Notes: generated by a model not told the origin, from the letters alone. A stretch of DNA of 64,000 nt from an uncultured Methanosarcinales archaeon (GCA_964498285.1 CAZCGN010000001.1:175916-239915), one strand, 5' to 3'; counted from the stretch's first letter, positions 37,342 through 62,650 are shown. Numbers and translations are program-made.

Positions 37342-37455
37342 CCGGACGGTCATAGGGATGTGGTTCACCTGTTCCCATTTCGAACACAGAAGTTAAACAC
37401 GTTTCCGTATTGCCTGGTACTATACTTATGTATGGGAAGAGTGGTAAGCTGTCCT
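37342..37455 (+). rRNA. rrf: 5S ribosomal RNA (stand-alone gene)
   Basis: GGACGGTCATAGGGATGTGGTTCACCTGTTCCCATTTCGAACACAGAAGTTAAACACG...TATGGGAAGAGTGGTAAGCTGTCC. Conserved CCCAUxxCGAACACxGAAGUUAA core. 5' GGACGGU pairs with 3' GCUGUCC. Followed by a T6 archaeal terminator. Confidence 0.75.
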
Positions 37456-37530
37456 TTTTTCTTACTTAACTTTCCATAAGGTTTTTAACTGTATCCTCAA
37501 GTATCTAGTAGCTTATTGAGGTGAAGTTAC

Positions 37531-40402: not shown

Positions 40403-40411
40403 CAATTAAAA

Positions 40412-41143: not shown

Positions 41144-41704
41144 TCATTTTGGTTTAATCCCTCGTTCTCTTAAACGATCTCGTAATCTTTGTCTTGCACG
41201 AAAAAGTCGATTCATAGCAGTCCCTTTTGGAATTGCTAAATGCTCTTGGATTTCTGAGTATGTTAAACCATCATAATGCCTAAGCCTAATTATCTGAGCG
41301 TGCGCAGGCGAAATTGTATCGAGCGCTTCTTCAATTCCTTCTCTAATTTGTCTAGCCCAAACTGGATCTGAATCATAACTAGGAGTTACCCAATTCTCGT
41401 CGAAACTAACTCTTCTTCCAACCAGATCTCTTCTTTTCTTTCTAGACCAATAATCTCTCACAACATTAACAGTAACCACCGTTGCCCAAGCCTTAAACGG
41501 CTTATCAGGATGATACGTATGTATGCCTCTAGTTATTCGCAGTAATGCTTCTTGTAAAAGATCCTCAGCAGTTGCTTCATCCCCCCTCAATAATTTCAAG
41601 ACCAACATATATGCCGATGGTTGGTACGAACGAAGAAGAGAATCTAAAGCTGAACTATCTCCTGCTACTGCTAACCTACCAAGATCTACTTCATCACAAC
41701 CCAT
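41144..41704 (-). CDS. ECF-type sigma-70 family RNA polymerase sigma factor (bacterial-type)
   Basis: Region 2 (EDLLQEALLRITRGIHTYHPDKPFKAWATVVTVNVVRDYWSRKKRR) and region 4 (LDTISPAHAQIIRLRHYDGLTYSEIQEHLAIPKGTAMNRLFRARQRLR). Confidence 0.7.
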   Translation of the reverse strand: MGCDEVDLGRLAVAGDSSALDSLLRSYQPSAYMLVLKLLRGDEATAEDLLQEALLRITRGIHTYHPDKPFKAWATVVTVNVVRDYWSRKKRRDLVGRRVSFDENWVTPSYDSDPVWARQIREGIEEALDTISPAHAQIIRLRHYDGLTYSEIQEHLAIPKGTAMNRLFRARQRLRDRLRERGIKPK

Positions 41705-41816: not shown

Positions 41817-43118
41817 ATGAAAATTAGTCTTTTTGGAACAGGTTATGTTGGCCTTGTGACTGGAGCATGTTTAGCAAACCTTGGTCACCAAGTTCTTTGT
41901 TGTGATGTTGACGAGCAGAAAGTTACTCTACTTAAAGAGAACAAAATTCCATTCTATGAACCAGGCCTTAAAGATCTTGTCGAAAGAGGACAAAAAACAG
42001 GCCGCCTTATGTTCACAACAGAAAATAAAAAGGCAGTGGAATTCGCACAAGTCATCTTTAATTGTGTAGGAACCCCAGCTAACGAAGATGGTTCGGCTGA
42101 TTTACAGTATATTTTCTCAGTAGTTGAGACAGTTGCACAAAATGCCACACTTCCAACTATTCTTATCAACAAAAGTACTGTTCCACCTGGAACTGCAAGA
42201 CGTTGTCAAGAAAAAATATTGTTGACCAATAATCAAAGTTTAGTGAGAGTTGTCTCAAACCCAGAATTTCTTAAAGAAGGAAGTGCCGTACATGATTTTA
42301 CACATCCTGACAAGATTGTTGTTGGTGCAAAGGATGCAATCGCATATGAAATTCTTCACAAGGTCTATTTTGGATTAGAAAGACCCTACATGAAAATTCT
42401 TGAAACGAGCTGGGAGACTTCAGAGATGATAAAATATGCAAATAATGCGTTTCTCTCAACTAAGATCAGTTTCATCAATGAAATTGCAAACATAAGTGAT
42501 GTTGTTGGAGCAGACATAAAAGTGATTTCACAAGCCCTTGGAAAGGACTACCGAATCAGCCCTAAATTCCTTAATGCAGGTATTGGCTACGCTGGAAGTT
42601 GCTTTCCTAAAGATGTCCAAGCATTAGCATCTGTTGCACAAACTAAAGGATACACTGCAAAATTGCTTAAAGAAGTGCACGAACTTAACGAAAGGCAAAA
42701 ACGGCTACTTCTGGGAAAAATTTCTTTGCGTTTTCCAGATCTTACTGGAAAAACGATCTCTCTTTTAGGTCTTTCATTCAAACCAAAAACAAGTGACATC
42801 AGATCCTCAGCCTCTCTTATTCTTATCAAAGAATTGCTCGAAAAAGGAGCAAATATTAGAGTGCACGATCCTGTTGCTAATAATGAAGTTGAAAAAATCT
42901 TTGGAAAACAAGTGACATACTGTTCATCTCCAATAGAGTGCGCAAAGGAAAGCTCAGCTCTTGTACTTGTGACAGAGTGGGACGAATTCCGTAACGTTGA
43001 TTTTAACCAGATTGGAAGTGTAATGAGAAAGAGAGTACTGTTTGATGGAAGAAATATTTACGATCCAGCAACACTTAAGTCATTAGGTTTTGAGTATGTA
43101 GGTATTGGAAGACAATGA
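41817..43118 (+). CDS. ugd: UDP-glucose/nucleotide-sugar 6-dehydrogenase
   Basis: MKISLFGTGYVGLVTGACLA Rossmann N-terminus and catalytic Cys region GYAGSCFPKD. 433 aa. Confidence 0.8.
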   Translation: MKISLFGTGYVGLVTGACLANLGHQVLCCDVDEQKVTLLKENKIPFYEPGLKDLVERGQKTGRLMFTTENKKAVEFAQVIFNCVGTPANEDGSADLQYIFSVVETVAQNATLPTILINKSTVPPGTARRCQEKILLTNNQSLVRVVSNPEFLKEGSAVHDFTHPDKIVVGAKDAIAYEILHKVYFGLERPYMKILETSWETSEMIKYANNAFLSTKISFINEIANISDVVGADIKVISQALGKDYRISPKFLNAGIGYAGSCFPKDVQALASVAQTKGYTAKLLKEVHELNERQKRLLLGKISLRFPDLTGKTISLLGLSFKPKTSDIRSSASLILIKELLEKGANIRVHDPVANNEVEKIFGKQVTYCSSPIECAKESSALVLVTEWDEFRNVDFNQIGSVMRKRVLFDGRNIYDPATLKSLGFEYVGIGRQ

Positions 43119-43984
43119 AAAAACCAAAAGTCTCTATTGTAATTATTTTTGATAAAATTAGGAAAGAAAAACTATTGCGCCTTCTTAACTCCTTTGCAAA
43201 ACAGATAGACCAGTATGAGACAGAAATTCTCTTTATGCACGAATCAGATACACACAAAAACTTCCCTCCCCTCCCAGTAGATGTCAGATACATTATAATT
43301 CCAAAAAATAAAGGCATCCCATTTAATAGGAATAAAGGTATTGAACATGCACAAGGAGACATTATTGTTTTCATTGATGATGATTGTTGGGTCCAACACA
43401 CCTGGCTCTCATCTCTAATTGAGCCATTACAAAAAGATGAAACAATTCTTGCAGTTACAAGCGGAACAAAAATACCTAAATCAAACCTTGTGGGGGACTG
43501 CATTTCTGCTCTGGGCTTTCCAGGAGGTGGCTCTTTAGGTTTTACAAAGGTGTGGAAAGTTTCTGGAAAAGGTTTTACAAACCATCTTGCTGTTGGAAAT
43601 TGTGCCTTACGAAGAGAATTATTTAAGAAAGTTGGCAAGTTTGATGAAACTATGAAATCCGGCGCTGAGGATGCTGAACTTTCTTTTAGAATGGAGCAAG
43701 CTAACATTCCAATCAAGTTTGCAAGTGGCGCATATGCATTTCATGAAGCCCGAACAACCCTCTCTTCCTTTATTAAGTGGCAACTACGCAGGGGGAAGGC
43801 AAACTATCAGTTTAAACAAAAAATAGGAAAAGTAGGTGGGTTCATTAAGCTACGATTGTGGTCTGCCAAAAACATTTTTTTGCAGAATATGTTTAATTGG
43901 AGATTGCCACTCATTTTTTCCTTCTTGATCCTTAGCTTTGTACTTCAACAAGTTGGATATTTCCTAGAGAAGCGAAGACACTAA
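43115..43984 (+). CDS. Family 2 glycosyltransferase
   Basis: VSIVIIFDK N-terminus, DDDC (DxD) motif and C-terminal TM helix. Overlaps ugd by 4 nt. Confidence 0.7.
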   Translation: MKKPKVSIVIIFDKIRKEKLLRLLNSFAKQIDQYETEILFMHESDTHKNFPPLPVDVRYIIIPKNKGIPFNRNKGIEHAQGDIIVFIDDDCWVQHTWLSSLIEPLQKDETILAVTSGTKIPKSNLVGDCISALGFPGGGSLGFTKVWKVSGKGFTNHLAVGNCALRRELFKKVGKFDETMKSGAEDAELSFRMEQANIPIKFASGAYAFHEARTTLSSFIKWQLRRGKANYQFKQKIGKVGGFIKLRLWSAKNIFLQNMFNWRLPLIFSFLILSFVLQQVGYFLEKRRH

Positions 43985-44280: not shown

Positions 44281-44517
44281 ATGGATAAGGTAGATTTCAT
44301 AGAGTTTTGTGCGGAATTTTGGCAAATAGATAGGTCTGAGATCAGAGATGAAATGCAGCTTGATGATACAAATTTACCAAATAACAGCTCAATTAGATTC
44401 TACCAGTTCATAGCCATGCTCGAAGCCAAATTTGGTCTTCATGTACAAAACATCAACTCAATATCGACTTTTGGGGATTTGTACTTAGATCTTACAAAAT
44501 CCAGAGAACATTTATAA
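44281..44517 (+). CDS. Small carrier-protein-like protein (possible acyl/peptidyl carrier)
   Basis: 78 aa, four-helix-bundle-like pattern with a candidate Ser in NNSSIRFYQFIAMLE. Immediately upstream of acpS. Confidence 0.35.
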   Translation: MDKVDFIEFCAEFWQIDRSEIRDEMQLDDTNLPNNSSIRFYQFIAMLEAKFGLHVQNINSISTFGDLYLDLTKSREHL

Positions 44518-44541: not shown

Positions 44542-44874
44542 ATGGTCCAAGGCATAGGAGTGGATATAGAAGAGATTGCACGTTTTAAAGAATCATATAA
44601 AGATGAACATTTTATCAACTTAGTTTTTACCCCTCGTGAAATTGCGTACTGTCAGAAGAAGAAAGAACCGTATATTAGTTTTGCAGGAAAATTTTGTGCC
44701 AAAGAAGCCGTAATTAAAGCAAGCAGCAAACCCCTTAGTGTTAAACAAATAGAGATTATAAATGAAAAAGATGGACAACCCACTGTCTTTATTAACGGGA
44801 TTAAAGAACCCTTCATTTCCTGTAGTATTTCGCACACAAAAGATAACGCCATAGCCTTTGTCATTATGAAATAA
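44542..44874 (+). CDS. acpS: Holo-ACP synthase (4'-phosphopantetheinyl transferase, AcpS type)
   Basis: GIGVDIEEIARF, FTPREIAYC, AGKFCAKEAVIKA and ISHTKDNAIAFV match AcpS signature blocks. 110 aa. Confidence 0.75.
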   Translation: MVQGIGVDIEEIARFKESYKDEHFINLVFTPREIAYCQKKKEPYISFAGKFCAKEAVIKASSKPLSVKQIEIINEKDGQPTVFINGIKEPFISCSISHTKDNAIAFVIMK

Positions 44875-44876
44875 AA

Positions 44877-45506
44877 ATGGAAGAGACGATTAGCAAGAAA
44901 CATAATTATTCCCAAGGTACCACCAGTTCTATTACAGTTCAGATTAAAAGTAGTAATATCCAAAAGGTAATTGAAAAGTTTAGAGAAGAAGAAAAACTGA
45001 ACATTAGTCCTGGAGATATAATTACCCATGCTGCTGGTCAGGCTTTACTAGATTTTCCTGAGTTTAATTCATCCTTTGCTAAGAAAGGAGAGCCATATCC
45101 TGATGTAAACATAGGCTATGCCATTAACCTTGGGCACGGACCAAAAACAGTTGTCATAAAAAGTGTTGCAAACAAATCTATTATTGAAGTTGCAAGTGAA
45201 GTTAAAAAATTGGCAGTAAAATATATTCGAAAAGAACTCTCAGAGGAAGATATGAATGGAGGGACTTTTTCTATATCGAACCTGTCTTCATTTGGAGTCC
45301 ACACAATGAACACCCCTACATTTGAGGATCAGTCCGCGTTACTTTCAATAAATTCAGAATATGACTCTATTGAATTCATTAAAGAAAGACCAATTCCAAT
45401 AAAACTATTTAACCTCTCACTCTCTTTTGATTTCCGTGTAGCAAACTGCCAACAAGCAGCTCAATTTTTAAAAAAAATTAAACATTTGCTTGAGAAATGT
45501 GACTAA
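44877..45506 (+). CDS. CAT / 2-oxoacid-dehydrogenase-E2-like acyltransferase fold protein
   Basis: C-terminal LSLSFDFRVANCQQAAQFL resembles the E2 DHRxxDG catalytic block, with Phe in place of the catalytic His. Confidence 0.35.
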   Translation: MEETISKKHNYSQGTTSSITVQIKSSNIQKVIEKFREEEKLNISPGDIITHAAGQALLDFPEFNSSFAKKGEPYPDVNIGYAINLGHGPKTVVIKSVANKSIIEVASEVKKLAVKYIRKELSEEDMNGGTFSISNLSSFGVHTMNTPTFEDQSALLSINSEYDSIEFIKERPIPIKLFNLSLSFDFRVANCQQAAQFLKKIKHLLEKCD

Positions 45507-45946
45507 CTTTTCAATTCCATAGTTTTATCTTCGAGAACGGTTACTTTGGCATTTCCATCAACAACAACTTCACCATTACAAATGATTTCTGTTTCCATAA
45601 TAATAACTCTTACACTATCAATCTTATCTTTAACTTTTCCCCGTATTAAAAGGGTAGAATTCGGATAGACTGGTTTTTTGAAATTTAGCTGTTGTGTTAA
45701 ACAAAGACATTTCTCACCTGGGCAAAGCATTCCAAAAAGAGTTGAAAAGTAGCTTGAAAGATGCAATCCGTGTGCAATAATTCCGTTAAACTGGGTCTTT
45801 TTGGCAAATGCTTCATCACAATGAAGGGGTTGCTTATTTCCCGTCAAAGAAATAAAATCATCAATACTCTCTTTTGTAAGAAGCTGAGTAAACTCAAACA
45901 CAGAACCAATTTTAATTTCCTCATAACTAAAACAGTTTGCATCCAT
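45503..45946 (-). CDS. MaoC-like hot-dog fold dehydratase
   Basis: 147 aa. Hot-dog core with GKVKDKIDSVRVIIMETEIICNGEVVVDG pattern. Confidence 0.55.
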   Translation of the reverse strand: MDANCFSYEEIKIGSVFEFTQLLTKESIDDFISLTGNKQPLHCDEAFAKKTQFNGIIAHGLHLSSYFSTLFGMLCPGEKCLCLTQQLNFKKPVYPNSTLLIRGKVKDKIDSVRVIIMETEIICNGEVVVDGNAKVTVLEDKTMELKS

Positions 45947-45949
45947 CTT

Positions 45950-46438
45950 TTATGTATTTTCACCTAAAGCCCCATGTTTTTTGAGAGCTTCTTTGATTTG
46001 GCCATATGTTCTAAGTTGCATAACTTCCTGTGTTGTAAACCTAACATTGAATGCTTTTTCTAAATCAGAAAAGAGCATCATACCTGCAAATGAATCATTT
46101 GATGTGAGCAAATCGCTGTTCAGACCTGCTTTAAGATCCTTTGTATCGATATTAAGATTTTTTTGAAGTATCTCCTGAAGTTTCTCTTCAGGAGTTTCCT
46201 TTTTCAACACTATCTGCTTACTTTGAAGAATTGTAATAATTTGTTCAACGTTGTTGAGTCGTAATATCTCTTCTTCTCTAAACGTAATGAGAAAAGATTT
46301 TTCAAGTTCAGCAATGATCTTAAAGTGGGCAAGAGAATCCCATCCTTCAACATTAAGCATTGAAGAATCAAGAGTGATTTTTGCTTGATCCAGACCTAAT
46401 GCTTGAGCCACAACTTCTTTAACTTTCTCATCAATCAT
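45950..46438 (-). CDS. Tandem (didomain) acyl carrier protein
   Basis: First domain has canonical LNVEGWDSLAHFKIIAELEKSF (DSL phosphopantetheine site). Second domain has TSNDSFAGMMLFSDLEKAF. Confidence 0.55.
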   Translation of the reverse strand: MIDEKVKEVVAQALGLDQAKITLDSSMLNVEGWDSLAHFKIIAELEKSFLITFREEEILRLNNVEQIITILQSKQIVLKKETPEEKLQEILQKNLNIDTKDLKAGLNSDLLTSNDSFAGMMLFSDLEKAFNVRFTTQEVMQLRTYGQIKEALKKHGALGENT

Positions 46439-46468: not shown

Positions 46469-49276
46469 TTACTTTATATATTTGTCTGTATAATATGCTC
46501 GCAATTTTCGATAGAGTATCTTTTTTGTCGGCCCTTTGGGGATATTATCTAAATCTTCAAGTGTATTAATTATGATTATTTCTTTTGGTTGCTTGTATCC
46601 TGCAAGCTTTCCTGACAAAAAATCTATTAACTCTTCTTTTGTTGTAGAGCCATTTTCATGCAGCTTCACAAAAGCGCAAACTTCTTCTCCAAGTAGAGGG
46701 TGAGGAATCCCAATCACTGCGCATTCAGAAACACTATTATGTTTGAACAAAACATTCTCAACCTCACTTGGATAAATGTTCTCTCCCCCCTTAATGATCA
46801 AGAAATCTTTACGTGTCTTAAAGTAGATATAACCATCTTCATCTTTGTATCCAAAATCTCCACTACGAAACCAGCCATCTCTAAAATTCTGTTTGTTCTT
46901 CTCTTCAAGGTCAAAATATTCGTTCACAACATTCAAGCCGCGAATACAAATCTCTCCTTCTTGATGAGGTTGGAGTTCACAATCATTTTCATCACGTATA
47001 GTAATTCTATTAATAGGAAATTCTCTTCCAACTGATCCTTCTTTCCGCTTTTCTTTTGGATAATTGTTAAAACAAGCAAACGATGTTGTTTCTGTAAGAC
47101 CATAGCCTTCAAAAATTGGAACACTGAATCTTTCTTCAAATTTTCGTTGCACTTCTCTTGTAAGTACTTGCCCCCCACAGATTATCCCCCGCATTGATGT
47201 GTCTTTCCGCTCAATTGGCATACTAAGTAATATTGATAAAATTGAGGGCATAACACTTGTCCAGTTAACATTGTACTTATCAACAACAGACCAAAATGCA
47301 AGTAAGCTTGCCTTTCCTTGGATAATTACTGTTGACCCACCTGAATAAAGAGGTGTGAGAAGAGTTATCACCTGCCCATTGTTGTGAAATAACGGAAGAA
47401 TACAAAGTGTTCTTGTGGTTTTAGTAAAATGAAACCACTCAGAGATCACTTTGGCATCAGAAAGAAGGTTAAGATGAGTTAGCACTGCTCCTTTAGGATT
47501 TCCAGTGGTACCCGAAGTATAAATAATAACTGCTTCATCAGTAAGGTTTACCTTTGGAAAAGTGGATCTCACCTCCAAGATAGAATCATCCAAATCCCTC
47601 TCTTTAAGATTGCGAATCTCTGTTGCAGGACAAATCTCGACTTCTGATGAGACTTGACCTTTCAGTTCCTCAATTTTGGTTTTCAGTGATGAATCATAGA
47701 AAACTGTCTTGGATCTTGATTGGGTGATAATATAAGCCATTTCAGGCGCAGAAAGAGCTGGGTTAATTGGAACAACAGTTATGCCTAAGCGCAAAGCTGC
47801 AAAGTAAAGTAAAACAAATTCAGGAGAGTTTGGAATTATCAGGTTTATTCGCTCACCTTTGGAAACCTTTTTCTCTAAAAGATAATTTGCAACTTTTAGC
47901 AACATGTAATCAAACTCTTGATATGAAAATGATTCATTCATTCCTGGGAAAAAGGCAAAGGTTTTGTCTGGATCTTCTTGCACTTTTGCAGAAAATAGTT
48001 CATACACATTGTTATACTCAATTGGAAATGGCTCTCCTAACTTTTGGTGATCAAAAAGTTGCTCATCTTCCACAAGTATTGATGCTTCTTGTAGGGCAGG
48101 TTTTTCTAAGTATTGTTCTACAACATCCATTATATCTTGTAGAGTAGTCATCTTTAGAGAATCTCGAAACTTTATCTCGATACCAAACTTTTTTTCTACT
48201 GCAGAGAGGAGTTGAATATGTTTTAAAGAGTCCCACTCAAGATATTTTTCCATTGAGATATTCTCTTCATCTAATGAAAGATTGAGTACTTGCTCAAACA
48301 CTTCCTTAAGCCCTTCTCTAATTAAACTGTTAACCGAACTTTGTTTTGTGTTTGTATTAAAATGGCCTATAATATTTTGTGCCGCAAGTTGTGCCATATT
48401 ATGCCTGCATTCCTTTGTTGCAGTTCCAATGTGAGGAATTACAATACAATTCGGAAGATTACAAATAGGATGATTACCAGAAATTGGCTCAGGATCTGTA
48501 ACATCTAAACATGCCCCACGAACTTGCCCACTTTTTAAGGCAGCATAAAGATGATCAGTGTTTACGACTCCTCCACGAGCCATGTTAAGAAGGATAGGTT
48601 TTCTCGCCATTTTATTAAATGCAATTTGATCAATCAAGCCTTTTGTTTCTTCAGATAAAGGAACGTGTAAAGAAATATAATCTGAATGCGCAAGTAAGTA
48701 GTCCAGATCAACTTGTTTTACAGGAGGATCTTCTGAATCTACTTTTGAACGGTTGTGATATATTACATTAAGATCAAACCCCCGAGCTCGCTGGGCGACA
48801 GCTTTCCCTATTTTTCCAAAACCAATTATCCCAAAAGTCTTTCCACTCAACTCTTCTCCTAAGAACAGTTCTGGATCCCATGATTTCCAATTATCACTCC
48901 TGACAAATTCCTGTGCCAAAGATACTTGCCGTATTAGTTGCAAGAGAAGAGCAAAAGTCATATCCGCAGTGCTATTAGTTACAACGTTCGGCGTGTTATA
49001 AATAAAGATCCCTCTCTTTTTTGCATATTCCAAATCAATGTTGTCAAGACCTACTGCAAAATTTGAGATTACTTGAAGGTTGTTTTTAAGATCAAGAATC
49101 TCGGGAGTAAACTTTTCAGTAACTGAAGAGAGAATGCCATCATAACTGGAGACAACTTCTTTAAGTTTTTCTACAGAAAGAGGAGCATTATCATAACTTT
49201 CGTCCACGTGAAAATGTGCAGAGAGAATCTCTCTTGCAACCTTAGGCAACCTTCTTGTGATAAATATCTTTTTCAT
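46469..49276 (-). CDS. Tridomain enzyme: D-isomer 2-hydroxyacid dehydrogenase - carrier protein - AMP-binding adenylation domain
   Basis: The N-terminal ~310 aa form a D-isomer 2-hydroxyacid dehydrogenase domain (NAD-binding GKTFGIIGFGKIGKAV, catalytic His/Glu/Arg pattern). The middle ~70 aa are a carrier domain (EKYLEWDSLKHIQLLSAVEKKFG). The C-terminal ~530 aa are an adenylation domain (IIYTSGTTGNPKGAVLTH, YGLTETT, YFKTRKDFLIIKGGENIYPSEVE). 935 aa. Confidence 0.7.
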   Translation of the reverse strand: MKKIFITRRLPKVAREILSAHFHVDESYDNAPLSVEKLKEVVSSYDGILSSVTEKFTPEILDLKNNLQVISNFAVGLDNIDLEYAKKRGIFIYNTPNVVTNSTADMTFALLLQLIRQVSLAQEFVRSDNWKSWDPELFLGEELSGKTFGIIGFGKIGKAVAQRARGFDLNVIYHNRSKVDSEDPPVKQVDLDYLLAHSDYISLHVPLSEETKGLIDQIAFNKMARKPILLNMARGGVVNTDHLYAALKSGQVRGACLDVTDPEPISGNHPICNLPNCIVIPHIGTATKECRHNMAQLAAQNIIGHFNTNTKQSSVNSLIREGLKEVFEQVLNLSLDEENISMEKYLEWDSLKHIQLLSAVEKKFGIEIKFRDSLKMTTLQDIMDVVEQYLEKPALQEASILVEDEQLFDHQKLGEPFPIEYNNVYELFSAKVQEDPDKTFAFFPGMNESFSYQEFDYMLLKVANYLLEKKVSKGERINLIIPNSPEFVLLYFAALRLGITVVPINPALSAPEMAYIITQSRSKTVFYDSSLKTKIEELKGQVSSEVEICPATEIRNLKERDLDDSILEVRSTFPKVNLTDEAVIIYTSGTTGNPKGAVLTHLNLLSDAKVISEWFHFTKTTRTLCILPLFHNNGQVITLLTPLYSGGSTVIIQGKASLLAFWSVVDKYNVNWTSVMPSILSILLSMPIERKDTSMRGIICGGQVLTREVQRKFEERFSVPIFEGYGLTETTSFACFNNYPKEKRKEGSVGREFPINRITIRDENDCELQPHQEGEICIRGLNVVNEYFDLEEKNKQNFRDGWFRSGDFGYKDEDGYIYFKTRKDFLIIKGGENIYPSEVENVLFKHNSVSECAVIGIPHPLLGEEVCAFVKLHENGSTTKEELIDFLSGKLAGYKQPKEIIIINTLEDLDNIPKGPTKKILYRKLRAYYTDKYIK

Positions 49277-49303: not shown

Positions 49304-50611
49304 TTAGAGATCATTTGTGTAGTTAACTTCTGAAGATCTCTCCATTGAGGAAGTATTTGGAAGCGTTTCTTTTTTTCTTCTCAAATATTCGCCGACTTTC
49401 TTCATCCCTTGTTCTATAACTTCCAAATTATTGACTAATGGTCCAAAAGACACTCGTACTGCACCTGATAGAGTCCTACCAAAACCCCAACCTGGTACAA
49501 AAAGAACTGCAGATTCCTTAAGCACTTCTTCAACAAATTTTGCCCCATCATCACCAACTTTAATACAAGTATATAAACCACCTTTAGGTGTGAGTGCTGG
49601 AAGACCGATATATTCTTTGATTGCTTTAACTGTATGTTCGCCTGCTCGCCTATATTGTTCACTAATTTGTTTTGTATACGATCTTAAAGTGTTATTTTCT
49701 ATTGCATCGTTGAGATACTTTGTTAAAGCCATCTGATGAAGATTGTCGGGACAAAGAATGGATGACCCTTGAATTGATTCTAATGCGTGAACAATTTCAC
49801 TACTTGCCTCAATCCATCCTAACCGTCTTCCAAGACTTCTGCTCCACTTGGAGTTTGAATGAATTGTTAAGAAATGATCATCTGGTTTCCAGGAAAAGTA
49901 TTCTGGAAGATTTTCATCAAAGACCATATCCTTATACGCAAAATCAACAATGAGAAAACTTCCAACCTCCTTTACTGCTCTGAGGGCTGATGCAACAAAA
50001 TCATCTGACAAGACTTGTGAGGTTGGATTATCAGGCGAGACTAATAACACTACTTTTGGTCGTTCCTGAAGAATAAAATCATAAAACTCTTGGCATCGTC
50101 GATCCGCAACGTACTCCCATCGCTCAGTATCAATAACAGGAAAGCGTACAACTTCAACGTCTAAAGCAGTCGTTACCTGCGAAGGAAGATTACAATAACT
50201 TGGATCAAGAAGCGCCACTTTATCACCAGGGTTTAACAATACTTGCATAAGGTTAAAGGTAAGTTGAGTTGAACTCGCACCAATTGCTATATGCTGTGGC
50301 TCAAGCCCCAGGGTGCCATACAAATGGCTTTCATACCGAATAATGGCCTTTTTGCACTCAGGACTTCCAAGCGTTGCAGAATAACCACCGGACATGTGAA
50401 AACTTGCCTCATTTGAAACTATTTCTTGGTATGCTTTTTGTAATAATGATGGAGCTTTGTGATTAACCCACCCCCCGGCAAATGAGATAACTTCTGATGC
50501 TTCAACCCCTATTTTTTTAAAGTACGCTGGATCTGCATAGTCCATAATTTGCCTAATTGGAGAGATTGTTCTCCGAAAACTAAGTGATTTATCTGATAAC
50601 ATTGGTTTCAT
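49304..50611 (-). CDS. Class I/II PLP-dependent aminotransferase
   Basis: SNSKWSRSLGRRLGW (PLP-lysine region) and fold-type-I spacing. 435 aa. Confidence 0.7.
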   Translation of the reverse strand: MKPMLSDKSLSFRRTISPIRQIMDYADPAYFKKIGVEASEVISFAGGWVNHKAPSLLQKAYQEIVSNEASFHMSGGYSATLGSPECKKAIIRYESHLYGTLGLEPQHIAIGASSTQLTFNLMQVLLNPGDKVALLDPSYCNLPSQVTTALDVEVVRFPVIDTERWEYVADRRCQEFYDFILQERPKVVLLVSPDNPTSQVLSDDFVASALRAVKEVGSFLIVDFAYKDMVFDENLPEYFSWKPDDHFLTIHSNSKWSRSLGRRLGWIEASSEIVHALESIQGSSILCPDNLHQMALTKYLNDAIENNTLRSYTKQISEQYRRAGEHTVKAIKEYIGLPALTPKGGLYTCIKVGDDGAKFVEEVLKESAVLFVPGWGFGRTLSGAVRVSFGPLVNNLEVIEQGMKKVGEYLRRKKETLPNTSSMERSSEVNYTNDL

Positions 50612-50649: not shown

Positions 50650-51402
50650 TTATACGACCATCCCCCCGTCAATAACGAGAACCTGGCCTGTAACATAGCT
50701 TGACATTGCAGTTGCTAAGAACAGTGCACCTTTTGCAATCTCTTCTGGTTTTGCAATTCTTCGTAGTGAAGTTCTACTAACAAGTTTTTCCACGCGAGCC
50801 TTATCTAACGCATCTAGCATGTCTGTTTGAGTCAATCCTGGTGCTAGAGCATTTACTCGTATGCCCACCTCTCCCAACTCTTTTGCCGCAGCTTTTGTAA
50901 GCCCTATTACTCCTGCTTTACTTGAACAATACGGGGTTTGGCCCGCGTTTCCATAAATCCCAACCGAAGAAGTAACATTTATGATCCTGCCTCCATTTGG
51001 ATTGCTCATCATAAGTTTAGTTGCTTCATGCAAACAGTTATATGTTCCTTTTAAGTTAACATTCAAAATAGCATCCCAATCCTGCTCCTCTGTTTTTACA
51101 ATAAGATTATCTTTTAAGATTCCCGCATTATTAACAAGAACATCTATTTTGCCAAATTTTTCTTTGATCGTACGAAACATTTCAGCAACTTCATAAGAAT
51201 TACTTACATCTGCCTTAACCAAAAGCACTGTTGCTCCAATTTGTATGATCTCTTCTGCGGTTCTTTGTGCCTCAATATGATTCTTCAAATAATTTACTAT
51301 AACCATAGCTCCTTGCTTTGCAAACTCTAAAGCTATCGCTCGTCCAATTCCCCGACTTGCCCCAGTTACTAGGGCCACTTCCCCACGCATAAGGTCGATC
51401 AT
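50650..51402 (-). CDS. fabG: SDR-family 3-oxoacyl-(ACP) reductase (FabG-like)
   Basis: TGASRGIGRAIA, NNAG, and the YCSSKAG catalytic tetrad region. Confidence 0.8.
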   Translation of the reverse strand: MIDLMRGEVALVTGASRGIGRAIALEFAKQGAMVIVNYLKNHIEAQRTAEEIIQIGATVLLVKADVSNSYEVAEMFRTIKEKFGKIDVLVNNAGILKDNLIVKTEEQDWDAILNVNLKGTYNCLHEATKLMMSNPNGGRIINVTSSVGIYGNAGQTPYCSSKAGVIGLTKAAAKELGEVGIRVNALAPGLTQTDMLDALDKARVEKLVSRTSLRRIAKPEEIAKGALFLATAMSSYVTGQVLVIDGGMVV

Positions 51403-51491: not shown

Positions 51492-52415
51492 TTAGGGAGA
51501 CTTATGCTTGAGAATGCATGCATAATTTATTGGGGTTTTTTTATCTTCGGGTTTCTTTGCTGAAAATACATTTAAAACAAGTTCTTTTTCAATATCAAAA
51601 AATTCTTCAAGCATGTCCCGTACCTCTTGAGCTGATTTGAAAAGATAAATATGGTCTATTGCAGCAGCCCAAACTGCAGTTGTAAGGAAAAGTGTACCGC
51701 CCTTTTTAAGAAGCCCTTTGAGCTTTTTGAGAAGTGCTTTTGGATCTTCGAGATGTTCAAGTAATTCTCCACAAACTACCTTATCATATTGGCCTTCACT
51801 AGGAATATCAAAAATATTCTCTTTATGAATCATAGCCTTAATTCCATTATACTCTAAGACCTTTTTGCTAAACGTAACAGAGCTTGCACTAATATCATAT
51901 CCTTCAGCAACCCATTGTGGATTAGATCTCATAAACTCCGAAATAAACACTCCTGAGCCCACTGGAACCTCAATTATCTTGCCATTAGGAGAAAAAGGAG
52001 CTGAAAATTCCTTTAGAAAAAAAAGGAGCATCTTGTGATGGTTTATCCATAATGCCTGTGAAAGAAGAAGACCATTAAGATACCTTGTTTCCATAACTAA
52101 AGGATTATCATATACCTTTTCTTGGGCTTGTGAATAAGAGGAAAAAAGATATTTCCCCGTTTTTTCAAGTTCAATTTGCAATCGCAAAAACTCCATAGAA
52201 TATTCAATAAAATCTTTGATTGCTTTCGTGTACCTCTCCAAACTTTGGTTACAAAGAGCAAACATAGTTTGACACATCTTCTCGCCAAGCTCTCTGTCAT
52301 ATTTTGGATCAAGCAGTTTATCAGGAATACTCCTTGTTACAGGAGACTGCTTGAGTTGATCAAGAGTGTATGCAAATAGATCATCTGGTTTTGTATCGCC
52401 CATTGTTTCATTCAA
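51492..52415 (-). CDS. Class I SAM-dependent methyltransferase
   Basis: Motif I IIEVPVGSGVF and post-I acidic residue. 307 aa. Confidence 0.6.
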   Translation of the reverse strand: MNETMGDTKPDDLFAYTLDQLKQSPVTRSIPDKLLDPKYDRELGEKMCQTMFALCNQSLERYTKAIKDFIEYSMEFLRLQIELEKTGKYLFSSYSQAQEKVYDNPLVMETRYLNGLLLSQALWINHHKMLLFFLKEFSAPFSPNGKIIEVPVGSGVFISEFMRSNPQWVAEGYDISASSVTFSKKVLEYNGIKAMIHKENIFDIPSEGQYDKVVCGELLEHLEDPKALLKKLKGLLKKGGTLFLTTAVWAAAIDHIYLFKSAQEVRDMLEEFFDIEKELVLNVFSAKKPEDKKTPINYACILKHKSP

Positions 52416-53520
52416 TTAGATATTCTTCTTTTATTAATTCTCCCAACAAAGCTGCATAAACTTGATTCCCGTCAGCATTAAAATGACCATCAAAATTCCA
52501 ATGCATTTGAGTCGCTCGAGGGTGCTCTATTAAATCTTGAGTTGGATCAAAAAAATCAAGTCCTAAACGTTGTGTAATAATCGTATAGATTTCCTGAGCT
52601 ATCCTTGGGTTAAGATTTGCTTCATCCAAGTTATAACTCTCACTGATCACATCCAATCGTTCAGGATTTATTTGGTATGGTGGTGGAAGAAAAAGTACCA
52701 GAAGAGGGATATCTTGAGCTTGGGCTGATTTTTTCATCTCTGCAAGATTTTGGTATGTGCTATGGATACTATCTTGTATTGCAGGTGTGTTTCTTCCCTG
52801 CAGGAGAGCAAGATCAAAAGCATTAGAATTCCTCCCATGCCTATTAATTCCTAAGGTAGTAATTAATGTATGGCCAAGTGGCGTTGTTTTTGCTTTCCAA
52901 TAGAGGTGATTTATAAACTTGGAGTTCTCGTATACCCAAAGAGTAAAGGATTTTCTTTGTTGGGTACTACTTCTTTTATCAAATAGATTTGTTGCATACA
53001 AATTGCCGAGTCCTACTTCTACAACAATTAAATCAGGATTATATTTTGGTGCATACTCCTGGAGAATATAATTCATTTCACCAAGTCCACTACCCCCAAG
53101 GCCCAAATTTATAACTTCAACTCCTCCCATGGAAGATTCAAGAATACTAGGATATGTTTGTTCAAGATCAACCGTGTTGCCAAATACTGAAGATGACCCA
53201 ATTATTGCAATTCTATAAACTCCCTCTTCCTTTTGCAGGCTATGAAAGTCACGAAAACCTAAATGGTTTGTATTAATTGTGTATGAAAATTCTGAGGTGG
53301 ATTTTGTAAAGTTCGTCAAATTCACATAAACATTCTTCTTCAGTTCAGGAACAAATTGAGCATTTTCTTTTGGCCAAAGTCCTGGTGCCACTTCATCACT
53401 TTTAAATACGCGTACTCCTGCTTCCCCTGCTGCTAGACAAAGTAAGAGGACAACAAACAAAACAAGAAAGTTTATTCCTAAGTTGCGTAACTTTTTTTGA
53501 GTGTTCTTTGAAGGAGACAT
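52408..53520 (-). CDS. Membrane-anchored SGNH-hydrolase-like protein (AlgX/AlgJ/DltD-like O-acyltransferase candidate)
   Basis: N-terminal TM helix, then IAIIGSSSVFGN and GLGGSGLGE blocks consistent with an SGNH fold. Confidence 0.4.
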   Translation of the reverse strand: MSPSKNTQKKLRNLGINFLVLFVVLLLCLAAGEAGVRVFKSDEVAPGLWPKENAQFVPELKKNVYVNLTNFTKSTSEFSYTINTNHLGFRDFHSLQKEEGVYRIAIIGSSSVFGNTVDLEQTYPSILESSMGGVEVINLGLGGSGLGEMNYILQEYAPKYNPDLIVVEVGLGNLYATNLFDKRSSTQQRKSFTLWVYENSKFINHLYWKAKTTPLGHTLITTLGINRHGRNSNAFDLALLQGRNTPAIQDSIHSTYQNLAEMKKSAQAQDIPLLVLFLPPPYQINPERLDVISESYNLDEANLNPRIAQEIYTIITQRLGLDFFDPTQDLIEHPRATQMHWNFDGHFNADGNQVYAALLGELIKEEYLIE

Positions 53521-53649: not shown

Positions 53650-54630
53650 ATGGGGGAGAAAAAGTTCTATCTTCTAGTACCAATCATAGCATTAGTTATA
53701 AGCACCATCATATATGTCTCCTTTGCAAGTTCTTTTAATAGTCTTGGGCCAGAAAGTTCCAGGTTTCAGACCATACTACACGAATATGATACACTTCCTG
53801 CCGAAAGCCTCTTATTTTTGGGAGATAGTCAAATCCAAGATGGAATTGATTGTAATTTAATAGACCAAATAGTTGAAGAAAAATGTTTCAACTTTGGATT
53901 AGCAGGCTTGGTACCGGTCCAATTAGCTCTTCAAAAAGAGTTGATTATCTCAAGTAGTCCAAAGACAGTTGTTATTGGAACTTCCGCTGCATTCTATGAT
54001 GAATCTATGAATAAAAATGATGATCTATTTATGGTTATGAGCCAGTTCAAAAAAATCTCATATGATGCATTTCTTCTAACAAAGGTTACCGAACAAGAAA
54101 AAAAACTCTTAACAATGAACATCTTTCAAAGGTCTCTTTATAAGCGAAAATTCATTCTCCCTTTCTATACATCACTCTTTAAGCAAGTGTTCTTCTCGCA
54201 AGAAGTATACCCAAACATAATCAACAATTTTAAAAATCCACATTTCTTTATTCACCAACAACCTATTGAGACATTAATCTCGAAACTTGAAGATCCAAAC
54301 ATCACACAAATTTTTGAAATTGAAAAATCTCAGAAACGAGAACGAGAAGCGTTTCATTATCTCATTGCAGAGATGAAAAAAGAAGGAATCCACGTTGTCG
54401 TGATCCATATGCCAACGCACCCTTTAGTTTGGCAAACTGTTCCCTCTTCATCGCAGGAAACATTTCAGCAATATCTTGAAGAGCTCTCAGATGTCCTCAA
54501 CTTTACGTTAATAAACACTCAAGAAGATTTTCTCCCAGAACATTTTACAGATCTAACTCACCTTAACAGGGCTGGTTCAGAACATTTATCCAAAAAAATT
54601 GTAGAAGGTGAGTATAATATTATTCAATAG
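53650..54630 (+). CDS. DltD-like membrane-anchored SGNH-fold protein
   Basis: N-terminal TM anchor and LFLGDSQIQDGID (GDS block). Size and topology as DltD/AlgJ. Overlaps the MBOAT start by 23 nt. Confidence 0.5.
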   Translation: MGEKKFYLLVPIIALVISTIIYVSFASSFNSLGPESSRFQTILHEYDTLPAESLLFLGDSQIQDGIDCNLIDQIVEEKCFNFGLAGLVPVQLALQKELIISSSPKTVVIGTSAAFYDESMNKNDDLFMVMSQFKKISYDAFLLTKVTEQEKKLLTMNIFQRSLYKRKFILPFYTSLFKQVFFSQEVYPNIINNFKNPHFFIHQQPIETLISKLEDPNITQIFEIEKSQKREREAFHYLIAEMKKEGIHVVVIHMPTHPLVWQTVPSSSQETFQQYLEELSDVLNFTLINTQEDFLPEHFTDLTHLNRAGSEHLSKKIVEGEYNIIQ

Positions 54631-56068
54631 TCTTGCTTTTCTCTATTTTGGACTTGTTATTCTCCTCTTTTTACTCATTGTTCAACATAAAAAATGGCAG
54701 TATCTTTTCTTACTTGCTGCAAGCTATTTTTTTTATGCATATTCTAGCGGATACTTGTTTCTGTTGTTACTCTTCTCATCAGTCTTAGATTTTTACTGTG
54801 GGAGATCTATTTCTAACTCGACAAAAAAAAGAACACGTAACCTGTTTCTTACGTTAAGTTTAGTGGGGAATATTGGTGTTCTTGCATTTTTCAAGTATAC
54901 TGATTTTGCTATAACAACAGTAAATAGTGTTGCGGGATTTTTTGGATATTCAACTTCAATTCCTCTCTTGCATCTTGTTCTACCAATTGGAATTTCCTTT
55001 TTCACATTTCAAACAATGAGTTATACTCTTGATATTTATATGAACAAACTTAAACCAACTTCTTCCTTCCTCAATTTTGCCCTCTACGTTTCCTTTTTCC
55101 CTCAACTCGTTGCAGGACCAATTGTACGAGCAGCAGATTTCCTTCCACAGCTTAGTAAGAAAATTGTTGTAACAAAGGAAAATTTCATGCAGGGACTTAC
55201 CCTCGTTATGTGGGGCCTTGTTAAAAAAATCGTTATTGCAGATAATATTGCACTTTTCGTAAATTCTTTTTATGCTGATCCTACAGCGATCCCTGGAAGT
55301 CTTCCCATTATCCTTGCTGCAATCGCTTTTACAATCCAAGTATATTGTGATTTTTCAGGATACTCCGATATTGCAATCGGACTTGCACGCATAATGGGCT
55401 TTCATTTTAATTTAAACTTTGATAAACCGTTCTTCTCACAATCTATTGCTGAATTTTGGAAAAGATGGCACATCTCCCTTTCAACATGGTTTAGGGACTA
55501 TCTTTTTACTCCGATTATGGGAAAACGTTTCACACTCAAAAAACTGTATGCAAGTGTATTTTTCGTCTATTTAGTGAGTGGCCTTTGGCATGGAGCTGGA
55601 TGGAATTTTGTTGCATGGGGCGCTCTTCATGGCACATTTCTGGTTATTTCTATGGTAAGTAGTCAGTGGAGAAACAAGTTCAACAAAAAGATTGGACTCC
55701 TTAAAGTTCCCAAATTTCACAGAGTATTGCGTACTGCCTGGACTTTATATTTAGTTGTTTTCTCTCTTCTGCTCTTTAGATTGTATGATGCTCGTTTTAT
55801 TTGGTATGCTGCAAAGAAATTCCTCATTCTTGATTTTAGTGAATTTACATCGCAGGTCATACAAGTTGCATCAGCATATGAAACTTCACTATTAATTATG
55901 GGCATCTTTGTTATTATTCATACAATCACGTACTTCAAAAAAGATACAATTTCACACATTGCACAAAAGGGATATTTTGAGTGGACAATGTATCTTATAG
56001 GAATGATCTTACTTTTGTACTTCCTTGCTCCAAGCGAGTCCATACAGTTTATCTATTTCCAATTCTAA
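54608..56068 (+). CDS. MBOAT-family membrane-bound O-acyltransferase (DltB/AlgI-like)
   Basis: Polytopic, with conserved FWKRWHISLSTWFRDYLFTPI block (catalytic His) and upstream QTMSYTLDIY region typical of DltB/AlgI. Confidence 0.8.
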   Translation: MSIILFNSLAFLYFGLVILLFLLIVQHKKWQYLFLLAASYFFYAYSSGYLFLLLLFSSVLDFYCGRSISNSTKKRTRNLFLTLSLVGNIGVLAFFKYTDFAITTVNSVAGFFGYSTSIPLLHLVLPIGISFFTFQTMSYTLDIYMNKLKPTSSFLNFALYVSFFPQLVAGPIVRAADFLPQLSKKIVVTKENFMQGLTLVMWGLVKKIVIADNIALFVNSFYADPTAIPGSLPIILAAIAFTIQVYCDFSGYSDIAIGLARIMGFHFNLNFDKPFFSQSIAEFWKRWHISLSTWFRDYLFTPIMGKRFTLKKLYASVFFVYLVSGLWHGAGWNFVAWGALHGTFLVISMVSSQWRNKFNKKIGLLKVPKFHRVLRTAWTLYLVVFSLLLFRLYDARFIWYAAKKFLILDFSEFTSQVIQVASAYETSLLIMGIFVIIHTITYFKKDTISHIAQKGYFEWTMYLIGMILLLYFLAPSESIQFIYFQF

Positions 56069-56118: not shown

Positions 56119-56865
56119 ATGAGTTCAAAGACCAGAAAAGATCTCTCAAATCTTACCAACAAGCAACTTCGTGCGAAGGGACGTAAAAAATGTTGGAGTG
56201 TATCACAAAAATTCTGGCTTGAAGTGTCCCTTTTCATTGCAGCGCCTCTTGCACGCACCCGTATTACACCTAACATTATCTCAATTTCGTGGATTTTCGT
56301 GCAACTAATCGCCGCGGCATTATTTATATTCGGCAGTTATTCGCTCAACCTTATTGCTATTATTCTCTTCAACTTTGTTGCCTACATTGGAGACCACCTT
56401 GATGGCAACGTTGCACGCATGAAAGAACAGTATAGTAACCTTGGCCCATACTTAGAACAACTTGCAATCTTTTTTGGAACACCCCTTATATTCCTTGGCC
56501 TTGCATTTGGGAACTTCTCACAGAATGCAAATGCAACATTTTTAGTGCTAAGTCTTCTGGGTGTACTCTTTTGGTTGTTTGAAAAGCTTATTCGAATTAA
56601 CCCGGTTTGGTTTAATGAGGAAAAACAAAAAGAGTTAGTATCAATTTATCGAAAAAAAGTCTCGTTTCGAACACAAAAGGGTTGGAAAAAATATTTCATT
56701 GAGTTTACCAGAAGAGGACAACCATTTAATTTACTCTTCTTTTTAGTGCTCTTTAATTTTGCGCAAGCGGCAGCTCTTATTTACTCCGGACTCTTTGCTG
56801 CAGAATTCGTGCGAAAGCTGACTGCAACTGTACTTAACCTCAAGAAATCAGACGCACATGGCTAA
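56119..56865 (+). CDS. CDP-alcohol phosphatidyltransferase family protein
   Basis: YIGDHLDGNVARMK contains D-G-x2-A-R of the CDP-OH_P_transf signature. Multiple TM helices. Confidence 0.6.
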   Translation: MSSKTRKDLSNLTNKQLRAKGRKKCWSVSQKFWLEVSLFIAAPLARTRITPNIISISWIFVQLIAAALFIFGSYSLNLIAIILFNFVAYIGDHLDGNVARMKEQYSNLGPYLEQLAIFFGTPLIFLGLAFGNFSQNANATFLVLSLLGVLFWLFEKLIRINPVWFNEEKQKELVSIYRKKVSFRTQKGWKKYFIEFTRRGQPFNLLFFLVLFNFAQAAALIYSGLFAAEFVRKLTATVLNLKKSDAHG

Positions 56866-62648: not shown

Positions 62649-62650
62649 TC

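Follow-up and report, generated by a model that had tools for sequence, protein, structure and literature searches.

A 64,000-nt stretch of DNA deposited under an uncultured Methanosarcinales archaeon (CAZCGN010000001.1:175916-239915), which we will call the window, encodes on its minus strand a 935-aa protein in which a D-2-hydroxyacid dehydrogenase (DH) domain, a phosphopantetheinyl acyl carrier protein (ACP) domain and an adenylating ligase (A) domain are joined in a single chain. The tridomain protein represents a fused, previously undescribed form of a cassette that is widespread, uncharacterised and probably concerned with glycan acylation. Scans of genomes and of metagenomes, seeded with the neighbouring aminotransferase, gave 96 loci (related loci are given L-numbers below), and in 24 of the 96 the DH (~310 aa), the ACP (~78 aa) and the ligase (~520-550 aa) are encoded by separate adjacent genes in the same order; on this 'Rosetta-stone' ground we place the three activities in one pathway. 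The cassette most likely makes a small hydroxy acid on a carrier to decorate surface sugars or polymers, rather than a peptide-like natural product, and the window locus as a whole looks like an archaeal hybrid of the Dlt and PatAB acylation systems. Our favoured reading, to which we give an even chance, is that the tridomain protein serves a carrier-dependent acylation of a cell-surface glycan or polymer, as the module that makes the acid and loads it.

The tridomain protein and its domains

46469..49276, minus strand: DH-ACP-A fusion gene, 935 aa (open reading frame, translation, Pfam, fused orthologues at 62-67% identity)
48329..49276, minus strand: D-2-hydroxyacid dehydrogenase domain, residues 1-316, glyoxylate/hydroxypyruvate-reductase-like (PDB matches, NCBIfam, invariant residues)
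48125..48313, minus strand: carrier (PP-binding) domain, residues 322-384, with Ser350 (Pfam 1.4e-5, WDSLK invariant)
46556..47992, minus strand: ANL adenylating ligase domain, residues 429-907, acyl-CoA-ligase class (Pfam, PDB, NCBIfam)

The first-pass annotation of this DNA had described a single 935-aa open reading frame with three domains, and the frame, which runs for its 935 codons without interruption, and the Pfam assignments bear this out, with the correction that the gene sits on the minus strand. What had been called an A-T didomain does hold both domains, but in the order DH-T-A, with the carrier (T) ahead of the ligase. The quoted motifs are all found in the translation, including GKTFGIIGFGKIGKAV at residues 145-160, LEWDSLKHIQLL at 346-357, IIYTSGTTGNPKGAV at 584-598 and GYGLTETT at 724-731. 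By Pfam the DH domain matches 2-Hacid_dh_C (9.5e-58, residues 108-284) and 2-Hacid_dh (1.9e-27, residues 4-316), and the ligase matches AMP-binding (7.8e-85, residues 429-788) and AMP-binding_C (1.4e-16, residues 838-907). The middle segment, which had been marked as the weak point should it miss the carrier profiles, matches PP-binding at residues 322-384 (1.4e-5) with 25.6 bits, above the gathering score of 20.8. The carrier serine Ser350 (WDSLK), the DH triad R234/E263/H282 and the core motifs of the A domain are invariant in an alignment of five fused orthologues. An AlphaFold2 (AF2) model of the whole protein, made from a 5-sequence alignment, is unusable (mean pLDDT 51, pTM 0.32), and the fold assignments therefore rest on sequence profiles.

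The best PDB matches of the DH domain are GyaR (5aov, 4e-72; Pyrococcus), 2dbq and then human GRHPR (2gcg). Across 28 distinct cassette DHs the glycines of the Rossmann GxGxxG motif (G152, G154 and G157) and R234, E263 and H282 are invariant (28/28), as are T285 and R291. At the position that we take to determine the coenzyme, 17-18 of the 28 carry NRS, the window protein included, and 9/28 carry Asp; we read NRS as NADPH-type and Asp as NAD-type.

The A domain is matched over its full length by structures of oxalate-CoA ligase (5ie0, 7.5e-73), FadD13, malonyl-CoA synthetase (4fuq) and MenE, its best solved relatives, and in NCBIfam the best match is PRK06187, the best models are fatty-acyl-CoA ligases and all of the top 25 are acyl-CoA ligase families. 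The ANL core motifs A3 (TSGTTGxPKG), A5 (GYGxTE), A8 and the A10 Lys are all present together with the C-terminal subdomain, and the A4 region reads LPLFHNNG where amino-acid-activating enzymes have FDxS. Because of these relatives and models, and because LPLFH stands in place of FDxS, we class the domain as an acyl-CoA/ACP-synthetase-type enzyme and not an A domain of the nonribosomal peptide synthetase (NRPS) kind, and its substrate is probably a small polar acid.

The cassette lies in surface-glycan loci

In related loci with a DH gene the aminotransferase gene always lies directly upstream of it; there are 39 such loci, which we will refer to as type-1 loci. The family of this aminotransferase by itself exceeds 1000 members, with 1397 homologues at E<=1e-40. 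The following genes accompany the pair in type-1 loci:

FabG, 21/39
AcpS, 19/39
DegT sugar aminotransferase, 14/39
4,6-dehydratase, 14/39
NeuB, 12/39
NeuD/PglB-type hexapeptide N-acyltransferase, 11/39
methylmalonyl-CoA-epimerase-like VOC protein, 11/39
AAC(3)-type N-acyltransferase, 9/39
CMP-nonulosonate synthetase, 8/39
TylF-type O-methyltransferase, 8/39
DUF4910/DUF2172 'aminopeptidase-like' protein, 7/39

The neighbourhood is consistently one of surface-glycan or polymer biosynthesis, in the window and in about 40 related loci, many of them with nonulosonic-acid or amino-sugar genes. The cassette locus of Ancylomarina is a classical Wza/Wzc/Wzx capsule locus, and the free-standing ACP encoded there between DH and A is 35% identical to the fused carrier domain (2.6e-12). 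In the three-gene form the stop and start codons often overlap. The VOC epimerase-like protein stands next to A in its 11 loci, which suggests a thioester with a stereocentre at C2.

The pair formed by the aminopeptidase-like protein and an N-acetyltransferase resembles Campylobacter Cj1295 and Cj1296/7, the likeness being one of description and gene order only; genetic evidence connects Cj1295 with a 2,3-di-O-methylglyceroyl substituent of pseudaminic acid (PMC3068675). Which genes give rise to the hydroxyacyl groups of bacterial sialic-acid-like sugars is, according to the literature, unknown; one case is the N-glyceroyl group on the pseudaminic acid of Tannerella, the gene for which is described as elusive (PMC6120980, PMC5378307). 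The cassette is a concrete, testable candidate for the source of such groups. We found no description of an aminotransferase-DH-ACP-ligase cassette in the literature, and the fusion, as a natural 'Rosetta stone', gives a working hypothesis for a large unannotated cassette in glycan loci of the candidate phyla radiation (CPR), DPANN and Bacteroidota.

Homologues of the aminotransferase (51-56% identity) also occur as stand-alone genes outside any cassette, which argues for free-acid substrates. In L110 (11374-13166) and L113 (6757-8650) these stand-alone aminotransferases adjoin a split transketolase, in two different contexts, and L113 also has Tdh/Kbl-like genes and a racemase; the transketolase neighbours may hint at a hydroxypyruvate- or serine/glycine-related substrate.

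A Dlt-like MBOAT/SGNH backbone adjoins the cassette

54608..56068, plus strand: membrane-bound O-acyltransferase (MBOAT) with a DltB-like core and a C-terminal extension ending FIYFQF (Pfam MBOAT 4.1e-26)
53650..54630, plus strand: putatively membrane-anchored DltD-like SGNH protein, 326 aa, its gene overlapping the MBOAT start (motifs, AF2, Foldseek)
52408..53520, minus strand: second, putatively membrane-anchored SGNH/GDSL-like protein, 370 aa (Pfam Lipase_GDSL_2 2.5e-7, just under the gathering score)

DltB is the only NCBIfam match of the MBOAT (TIGR04091, 2.3e-48, over the full length and under the cut-off), DltB structures are its only PDB matches, and both conserved His, presumably H289 and H336 in DltB numbering, align with those of 6BUG. 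At 486 aa the protein is ~60 residues longer than DltB, and its C-terminus, ...QFIYFQF, fits FxYxxF. This 'acyl shuttle' motif resides on the DltX microprotein in Dlt systems and is fused C-terminally in PatA/AlgI-type MBOATs (PMC12148441). The DltD-like protein has GDS and DxxH motifs and an N-terminal hydrophobic stretch that we read as a transmembrane helix or membrane anchor. When its AF2 model (pLDDT 90.4) is compared with the PDB by Foldseek, the top 8 matches are all DltD (E 2e-6 to 7e-5, with moderate TM-scores of 0.43-0.50), above generic SGNH hydrolases, and every homologue of the protein with a named taxon is DPANN. The second SGNH/GDSL-like protein is kept in L004, L169 and L170.

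Locus L169, from Woesearchaeota, has the same backbone, made up of an NTP-transferase, UDP-glucose dehydrogenase, family 2 glycosyltransferase (GT2), AcpS, methyltransferase, GDSL protein, DltD-like protein, MBOAT (here ending FFYFQF) and CDP-alcohol transferase. The block of aminotransferase, tridomain and FabG genes is replaced there by an 85-aa DltC-like carrier and a 514-aa amino-acid-adenylating enzyme (TIGR01733 390 bits, over the cut-off; DltA 6e-107) that is 23% identical to the window ligase. Because L169 swaps the cassette for a DltA/DltC-type pair, the activation module appears to be interchangeable, while the backbone for export and transfer is conserved. An MBOAT also lies right beside the cassette in L152, L155 and L160, three unrelated loci from metagenomes. 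The gene context of ACPs, AcpS and ligase suggests a carrier-protein donor for the window MBOAT, and the locus also suggests that MBOATs with a fused Tyr shuttle can take such donors, which, if true, widens the mechanistic picture of MBOAT-SGNH systems. We found no description of Dlt-like systems in archaea in the literature.

Host and neighbouring genes

49304..50611, minus strand: class I/II pyridoxal-phosphate-dependent aminotransferase (Pfam 1.2e-33)
50650..51402, minus strand: FabG-type short-chain dehydrogenase/reductase (SDR), 3-oxoacyl-ACP reductase-like (Pfam, NCBIfam)
51492..52415, minus strand: S-adenosylmethionine-dependent methyltransferase, N-terminal region without assignment (Pfam)
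45950..46438, minus strand: tandem di-ACP, 162 aa, with Ser35 and Ser116 (Pfam PP-binding 8e-15, two stretches; DSL and DSF motifs)
45503..45946, minus strand: MaoC/hot-dog protein, catalytic Asp replaced, TGNKQPLH (Pfam 4.5e-17, motif comparison)
44877..45506, plus strand: E2-type acyltransferase homologue of the chloramphenicol acetyltransferase (CAT) fold, without the catalytic His (Pfam 2.4e-35, PDB)
44542..44874, plus strand: AcpS-type phosphopantetheinyl transferase (Pfam ACPS 2e-18; TIGR00556 3.6e-22)
44281..44517, plus strand: small ACP-like protein, 78 aa, no canonical DSL motif (weak NCBIfam ACP match, 8.4e-5)
41817..43984, plus strand: UDP-glucose dehydrogenase and GT2 glycosyltransferase, the glycan part of the locus (Pfam)
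56119..58321, plus strand: CDP-alcohol phosphatidyltransferase and Wzx/MurJ-type flippase (Pfam, NCBIfam)

The window carries archaeal markers (thermosome, 717 bits; family-B DNA polymerase; Rad50; HerA), and among named relatives those closest to the cluster genes come from metagenome-assembled genomes (MAGs) of Nanoarchaeota, Woesearchaeota and Pacearchaeota. Surface decoration is plausibly central to the host attachment of these ultrasmall episymbionts. Archaea are generally regarded as seldom having phosphopantetheinyl carrier proteins or AcpS, a point on which a literature search gave nothing specific, and those of the window would be dedicated to surface chemistry and not to fatty-acid synthesis; no ketosynthase, condensation domain or thioesterase was found among the Pfam-scanned neighbours in the window.

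The tridomain gene belongs to a minus-strand operon with the order SGNH/GDSL, methyltransferase, FabG, aminotransferase, tridomain gene, di-ACP and MaoC. Convergent to it on the plus strand are the small ACP-like gene, the AcpS gene, which Pfam and NCBIfam confirm where the first-pass annotation had placed it, and the gene for a stand-alone homologue of the E2 catalytic domain; divergent on the plus strand are the 326-aa membrane protein overlapping the MBOAT start, the CDP-alcohol phosphatidyltransferase and the flippase. The upstream part holds the UDP-glucose dehydrogenase, the GT2 glycosyltransferase and ATP-citrate-lyase-like genes. The fused carrier is the orthologue of the first free-standing ACP of split cassettes, and the N-terminal half of the di-ACP that of the second (7e-12). 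The small ACP-like protein is kept in L004 at 54% identity.

The methyltransferase is 64% identical in L002, 58% in L004 and 52% in Woesearchaeota L169. A BioC-like role on the acyl group was considered and set aside: the similarity is weak, and the methyltransferase accompanies the DltA-type enzyme in L169 too. The E2-like protein has DFRVANC where DHRxxDG is expected, and since the catalytic His is lost in 5/5 orthologues we rule it out as a canonical acyl-transfer catalyst. The catalytic Asp of MaoC is replaced by Asn in the window and in L002 only, the MaoC proteins of other loci being canonical, and a working dehydratase in the window is accordingly doubtful. Because these catalytic residues are lost we assign catalysis to neither protein; both may serve as carrier-docking scaffolds.

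Further genes of the window are recorded here as observations. A set resembling ATP-citrate lyase or citryl-CoA synthetase/lyase, with SucC-like (citrate-binding domain), SucD-like and citrate-synthase C-terminal-domain genes, lies at 38274-41137 on the plus strand and adjoins the acyl cluster in L004 too; it is possibly a local source of acetyl-CoA and oxaloacetate. Between this set and the UDP-glucose dehydrogenase gene, at 41144-41704 on the minus strand, is a gene for a 186-aa sigma-70 factor of the extracytoplasmic-function type (Sigma70_r2 3.7e-15, r4_2 1.1e-11), absent at the equivalent position of L004; in an archaeal genome it probably came along from bacteria by horizontal transfer, and it has no evident function in archaeal transcription. 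A lone 5S rRNA gene (37342-37457, plus strand) stands just upstream of a nucleotidyltransferase gene and the citrate-lyase genes, and a tRNA-His gene (30684-30758, plus strand) adjoins that for histidyl-tRNA synthetase.

At 59385-63451 on the plus strand a fusion of cytidylyltransferase and phosphoenolpyruvate (PEP) mutase (TIGR02320 1.7e-118) is followed by a phosphonate ABC transporter. In L169 (15656-18547, minus strand) the same neighbourhood holds a 963-aa cytidylyltransferase fused to a PEP-utilising enzyme resembling pyruvate phosphate dikinase (PRK05849, 858 bits). With PEP mutase 10 kb away, an acid derived from phosphonopyruvate (phosphonolactate or phosphonoalanine) was considered as a general product and is unlikely, because in none of the other loci does PEP mutase lie within 10 kb of the cassette; neither phosphonopyruvate decarboxylase nor 2-aminoethylphosphonate transaminase was found among the window open reading frames scanned.

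Proposed mechanism and alternatives

On the favoured reading the upstream aminotransferase would turn an amino acid into a 2-oxo acid, and the DH domain would reduce this to a small polar D-2-hydroxy acid, the NRS motif suggesting NADPH as coenzyme; we infer this direction for both steps. The A domain would then adenylate the D-2-hydroxy acid and thioesterify it onto the phosphopantetheine of Ser350, an arm that would be installed by the AcpS encoded 1.6 kb away. Finally the acyl group would be handed on, directly or through the adjacent di-ACP or small ACP. In the window the C-terminal Tyr motif of the MBOAT would relay it to the DltD-like SGNH protein and so to an extracytoplasmic polymer, a link between ACP and MBOAT that we likewise infer; in related loci it would go to soluble sugar N-acyltransferases of the AAC(3) or NeuD/PglB family. 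The earlier proposal that substrate making and loading take place in cis, with DH and ligase acting on the same acid, stands, backed most strongly by the 24 split loci; the aminotransferase directly upstream fits a route from amino acid by way of the 2-oxo acid to a D-2-hydroxy acid.

Our candidates for the loaded acid are guesses: D-glycerate (from serine) fits the DH relatives, the associations with O-methyltransferase and Cj1295-like genes, and a beta-hydroxyl on which FabG and MaoC could act; D-malate (from aspartate or oxaloacetate) agrees with the ligase's diacid-activating relatives and with the citrate-lyase genes nearby; D-2-hydroxyglutarate is a further possibility. Several points weigh against the favoured reading. 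The DH domain scores 300.4 bits against the NCBIfam glyoxylate reductase equivalog NF009714, under the cut-off of 455, and the Trp of GRHPR-type enzymes, a residue that we take to be contributed by the partner subunit, is replaced by Ile/Leu in the cassette DHs. The cofactor motif does not fix the direction of the DH step, because 9/28 of these enzymes carry the NAD-type Asp. At least 17 related loci, which we call type-2, have aminotransferase, ACP and A genes without a DH, and their A domains are 53-59% identical to that of the window; the DH can therefore be done without or substituted, and a plain linear route through free acids accounts for this less readily. MBOATs in which FxYxxF is fused are reported to take acyl-CoA and not carrier proteins (PMC12148441), and the window MBOAT could merely O-acetylate, with the adjacent ATP-citrate-lyase-like genes as acetyl-CoA source. 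FabG, the methyltransferase, the di-ACP and extra ACPs, and the degenerate MaoC and E2-like proteins are left unexplained.

An alternative that we hold to be unlikely, and nevertheless take seriously, is that the A domain couples the side-chain carboxyl of Asp or Glu to the ACP, and that the aminotransferase, the DH and/or FabG and the hot-dog dehydratase then act on the tethered residue. Transaminated Asp-ACP would be a 2-oxo form and at the same time a 3-oxoacyl-ACP, and butirosin BtrJ/BtrI, which load a dicarboxylic amino acid onto an ACP by its side-chain carboxyl, provide a model for such a route. The DH is physically fused to the ACP, the nearest solved relatives of the A domain activate diacids (oxalate, malonate), and the aminotransferase retains its alpha-carboxylate Arg. 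FabG and MaoC in the absence of a ketosynthase only make sense if the acyl group already holds a beta-oxygen, in type-2 loci the cassette functions without DH and is often accompanied by canonical MaoC and FabG, and the possible oxaloacetate source adjoins the cluster in both the window and L004. However, the 51-56% identical aminotransferases are ordinary stand-alone genes away from ACPs, the methylmalonyl-CoA-epimerase-like partner better fits a C1-linked, 2-substituted acyl group, the window MaoC lacks its catalytic Asp, and DH and FabG would be redundant.

It is also unlikely, to a slightly greater degree, that the cassette works independently of the MBOAT/SGNH pair and feeds a cytoplasmic sugar acylation by some further transferase, while the MBOAT O-acetylates the polymer from acetyl-CoA. 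Besides the acyl-CoA dependence of the characterised fused-FxYxxF MBOATs (PMC12148441) and the adjacent ATP-citrate-lyase-like genes, such a separation is favoured by L002, where the fused tridomain gene is accompanied by an AAC(3)-type N-acyltransferase and no MBOAT, and by L170 and L171, which have the MBOAT/DltD-like pair and no visible ligase. Yet a soluble N-acyltransferase with an intact active site is missing from the window, the MBOAT pair shares synteny with A, ACP and AcpS in the window, L004 and L169, and it abuts the cassette in L152, L155 and L160.

Less probable again is the reverse direction, that of a true Dlt analogue, in which the DH would oxidise a hydroxy acid, the aminotransferase would make an amino acid (e.g. 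Ser or Ala) and the A domain would load this for aminoacylation of a surface polymer. The Dlt-like backbone, the DltA-type amino-acid-adenylating enzyme of the Woesearchaeota version and the NAD-type Asp of 9/28 cassette DHs are in keeping with this, and DPANN and CPR are generally considered poor in amino-acid biosynthesis, which we count on the same side. The A domain, however, is only 23% identical to the DltA-type enzyme, has LPLFH instead of the alpha-amino-binding FDxS and finds its best matches in acyl-, oxalate- and malonate-CoA ligases, and the NRS of the window DH is taken as typical of NADPH-dependent reductases.

The depsipeptide or NRPS-like logic that the first-pass annotation saw in carrier and adenylation domains joined to a 2-oxo/2-hydroxy acid oxidoreductase is unsupported, because there is no condensation domain and the A domain is of acyl-CoA-ligase type. 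An NRPS-type carrier with its conserved Ser is present (WDSLK, invariant), but the A domain falls outside the amino-acid-adenylation class (TIGR01733, FDxS at A4), Pfam finds no condensation domain with HHxxxDG or other chain-forming domain in the tridomain protein or its neighbours, and thioesterase and reductase domains are likewise absent from protein and locus. The only CAT-fold neighbour is the E2-like protein without His, and the context is glycan-related in about 40 loci. We therefore regard small-molecule biosynthesis of this kind as very improbable.

Returning to the favoured reading, we offer tentatively, and with more doubt than confidence, a wider proposal: that DPANN archaea have a carrier-fed MBOAT/SGNH envelope acylation, a Dlt-PatAB hybrid with an interchangeable activation module (DltA/DltC-type in Woesearchaeota, aminotransferase plus DH-ACP-ligase here), and that the same cassette is the long-sought origin of the N-glyceroyl or other 2-hydroxyacyl groups that nonulosonic acids and amino sugars carry in CPR, DPANN and Bacteroidota.

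Origin of the fusion

The fusion stands in contrast to the separate genes of most relatives, and a frameshift or assembly error had been raised as an explanation; we dismiss this, as the identical protein is on record from a 780-kb NCBI contig and also from Logan assemblies made independently, another four fused proteins of full length (62-67% identical) have intact linkers, with indels only in these two linkers, and the fused forms are monophyletic.

Full fusions are found only in the window, L004, L002 and two short contigs from the protein search; when the whole protein was used for an exhaustive search of representatives, giant NRPSs with multiple A domains crowded the result, and only fragments and split forms came out. 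A two-gene form, DH plus an ACP-ligase fusion, occurs in four loci, three of them distinct, of DPANN type, with MAG labels of Nanoarchaeia, (doubtfully) Methanosarcinales, or none. Named hosts of the three-gene form are CPR (Peregrinibacteria, Nomurabacteria, Kaiserbacteria and Magasanikbacteria) and one Bacteroidota genome (Ancylomarina), most others being metagenome contigs. A neighbour-joining tree of A domains places the fused forms in one clade, sister to and nested among the two-gene forms, which lie within the three-gene forms. This nesting, as read from the A-domain sequences, indicates that the tridomain gene arose stepwise in one DPANN lineage, ACP and A being joined first and then DH. 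The source would be a horizontally mobile cassette of aminotransferase, D-2-hydroxyacid dehydrogenase, ACP and acyl-ACP ligase; a tblastn search of PLSDB plasmids with the aminotransferase gave no match at 1e-30.

Two-gene-form loci (L005 16446-17669, L007 14071-15312 and L090) hold more gene fusions within the same lineage, namely fusions of MaoC with an AAC(3) N-acyltransferase (407-413 aa) and a 989-aa DegT-NeuB fusion. L006 (CAYJVI010000018.1) and L007 (CAZRZP010000002.1), the latter additionally with an E2-like gene, carry the DPANN-type two-gene cassette in MAGs labelled 'uncultured Methanosarcinales archaeon', and these labels look doubtful.

Comparison with known systems

The DH domain shares with the glyoxylate/hydroxypyruvate reductases GyaR and GRHPR the Arg-Glu-His triad, the Ser/Thr after the His and R291, and differs from them in its score under the equivalog cut-off, in the Ile/Leu at the intersubunit Trp and in being fused to a carrier and a ligase. 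The A-KR-T modules of depsipeptide NRPSs (cereulide, valinomycin) likewise handle a 2-oxo or hydroxy acid on a carrier, but there the 2-ketoacyl group is handled, while tethered, by an SDR-type ketoreductase (KR), the A domains belong to the NRPS type and condensation domains are present. In butirosin biosynthesis BtrI/J/K/H deliver an ACP-built acyl group to an amino-sugar nitrogen, and glyceryl-ACP made by FkbH is loaded from 1,3-bisphosphoglycerate with no ANL enzyme.

The rfbKLMNO tetronate genes of Vibrio cholerae O1 form a comparable ACP, ligase and FabG-type set. Such sets are also known, and uncharacterised, in flagellin-glycosylation islands: like the cassette, those of Aeromonas group II and of Enterobacteriaceae combine an ACP with an AMP-dependent ligase and a 3-oxoacyl-ACP reductase, and they lie in loci for glycans or nonulosonic acids that lack a ketosynthase (PMC7874193, PMC4875605). 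The island cassettes differ in having LuxC/LuxE and in having no pair of aminotransferase and 2-hydroxyacid dehydrogenase, and none is reported fused; LuxC/LuxE were not found among the Pfam-annotated neighbours of our cassette, where no search aimed at them was made.

The closest parallels for the window locus as a whole are with envelope acylation. In the Dlt pathway of Gram-positive bacteria (DltA, DltC, DltB, DltX and DltD) an ANL enzyme likewise loads an acid onto a phosphopantetheinyl carrier, and the window has a DltB-matching MBOAT beside a DltD-like SGNH protein with a putative membrane anchor, and AcpS in the locus; the sister locus in Woesearchaeota adds a genuine DltA-type enzyme and a DltC-like carrier. 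The differences are that the window A domain is of acyl-CoA-ligase type and not DltA type (23% identity to the L169 enzyme), that the carrier is fused between dehydrogenase and ligase, that the MBOAT holds FxYxxF at its own C-terminus, as PatA and AlgI do, in place of a separate DltX and a short DltB, that the host is archaeal, and that the acyl group is probably a hydroxy acid; archaea are not, to our knowledge, known to make teichoic acids. With the O-acetylation systems of the PatA/PatB and AlgI/AlgJ/AlgX type the window shares the extra C-terminal MBOAT helices ending in FxYxxF and a separate SGNH partner or partners, but whereas those systems use acetyl-CoA with no carrier or ligase, the window has three ACP genes, AcpS and a ligase syntenic with its MBOAT.

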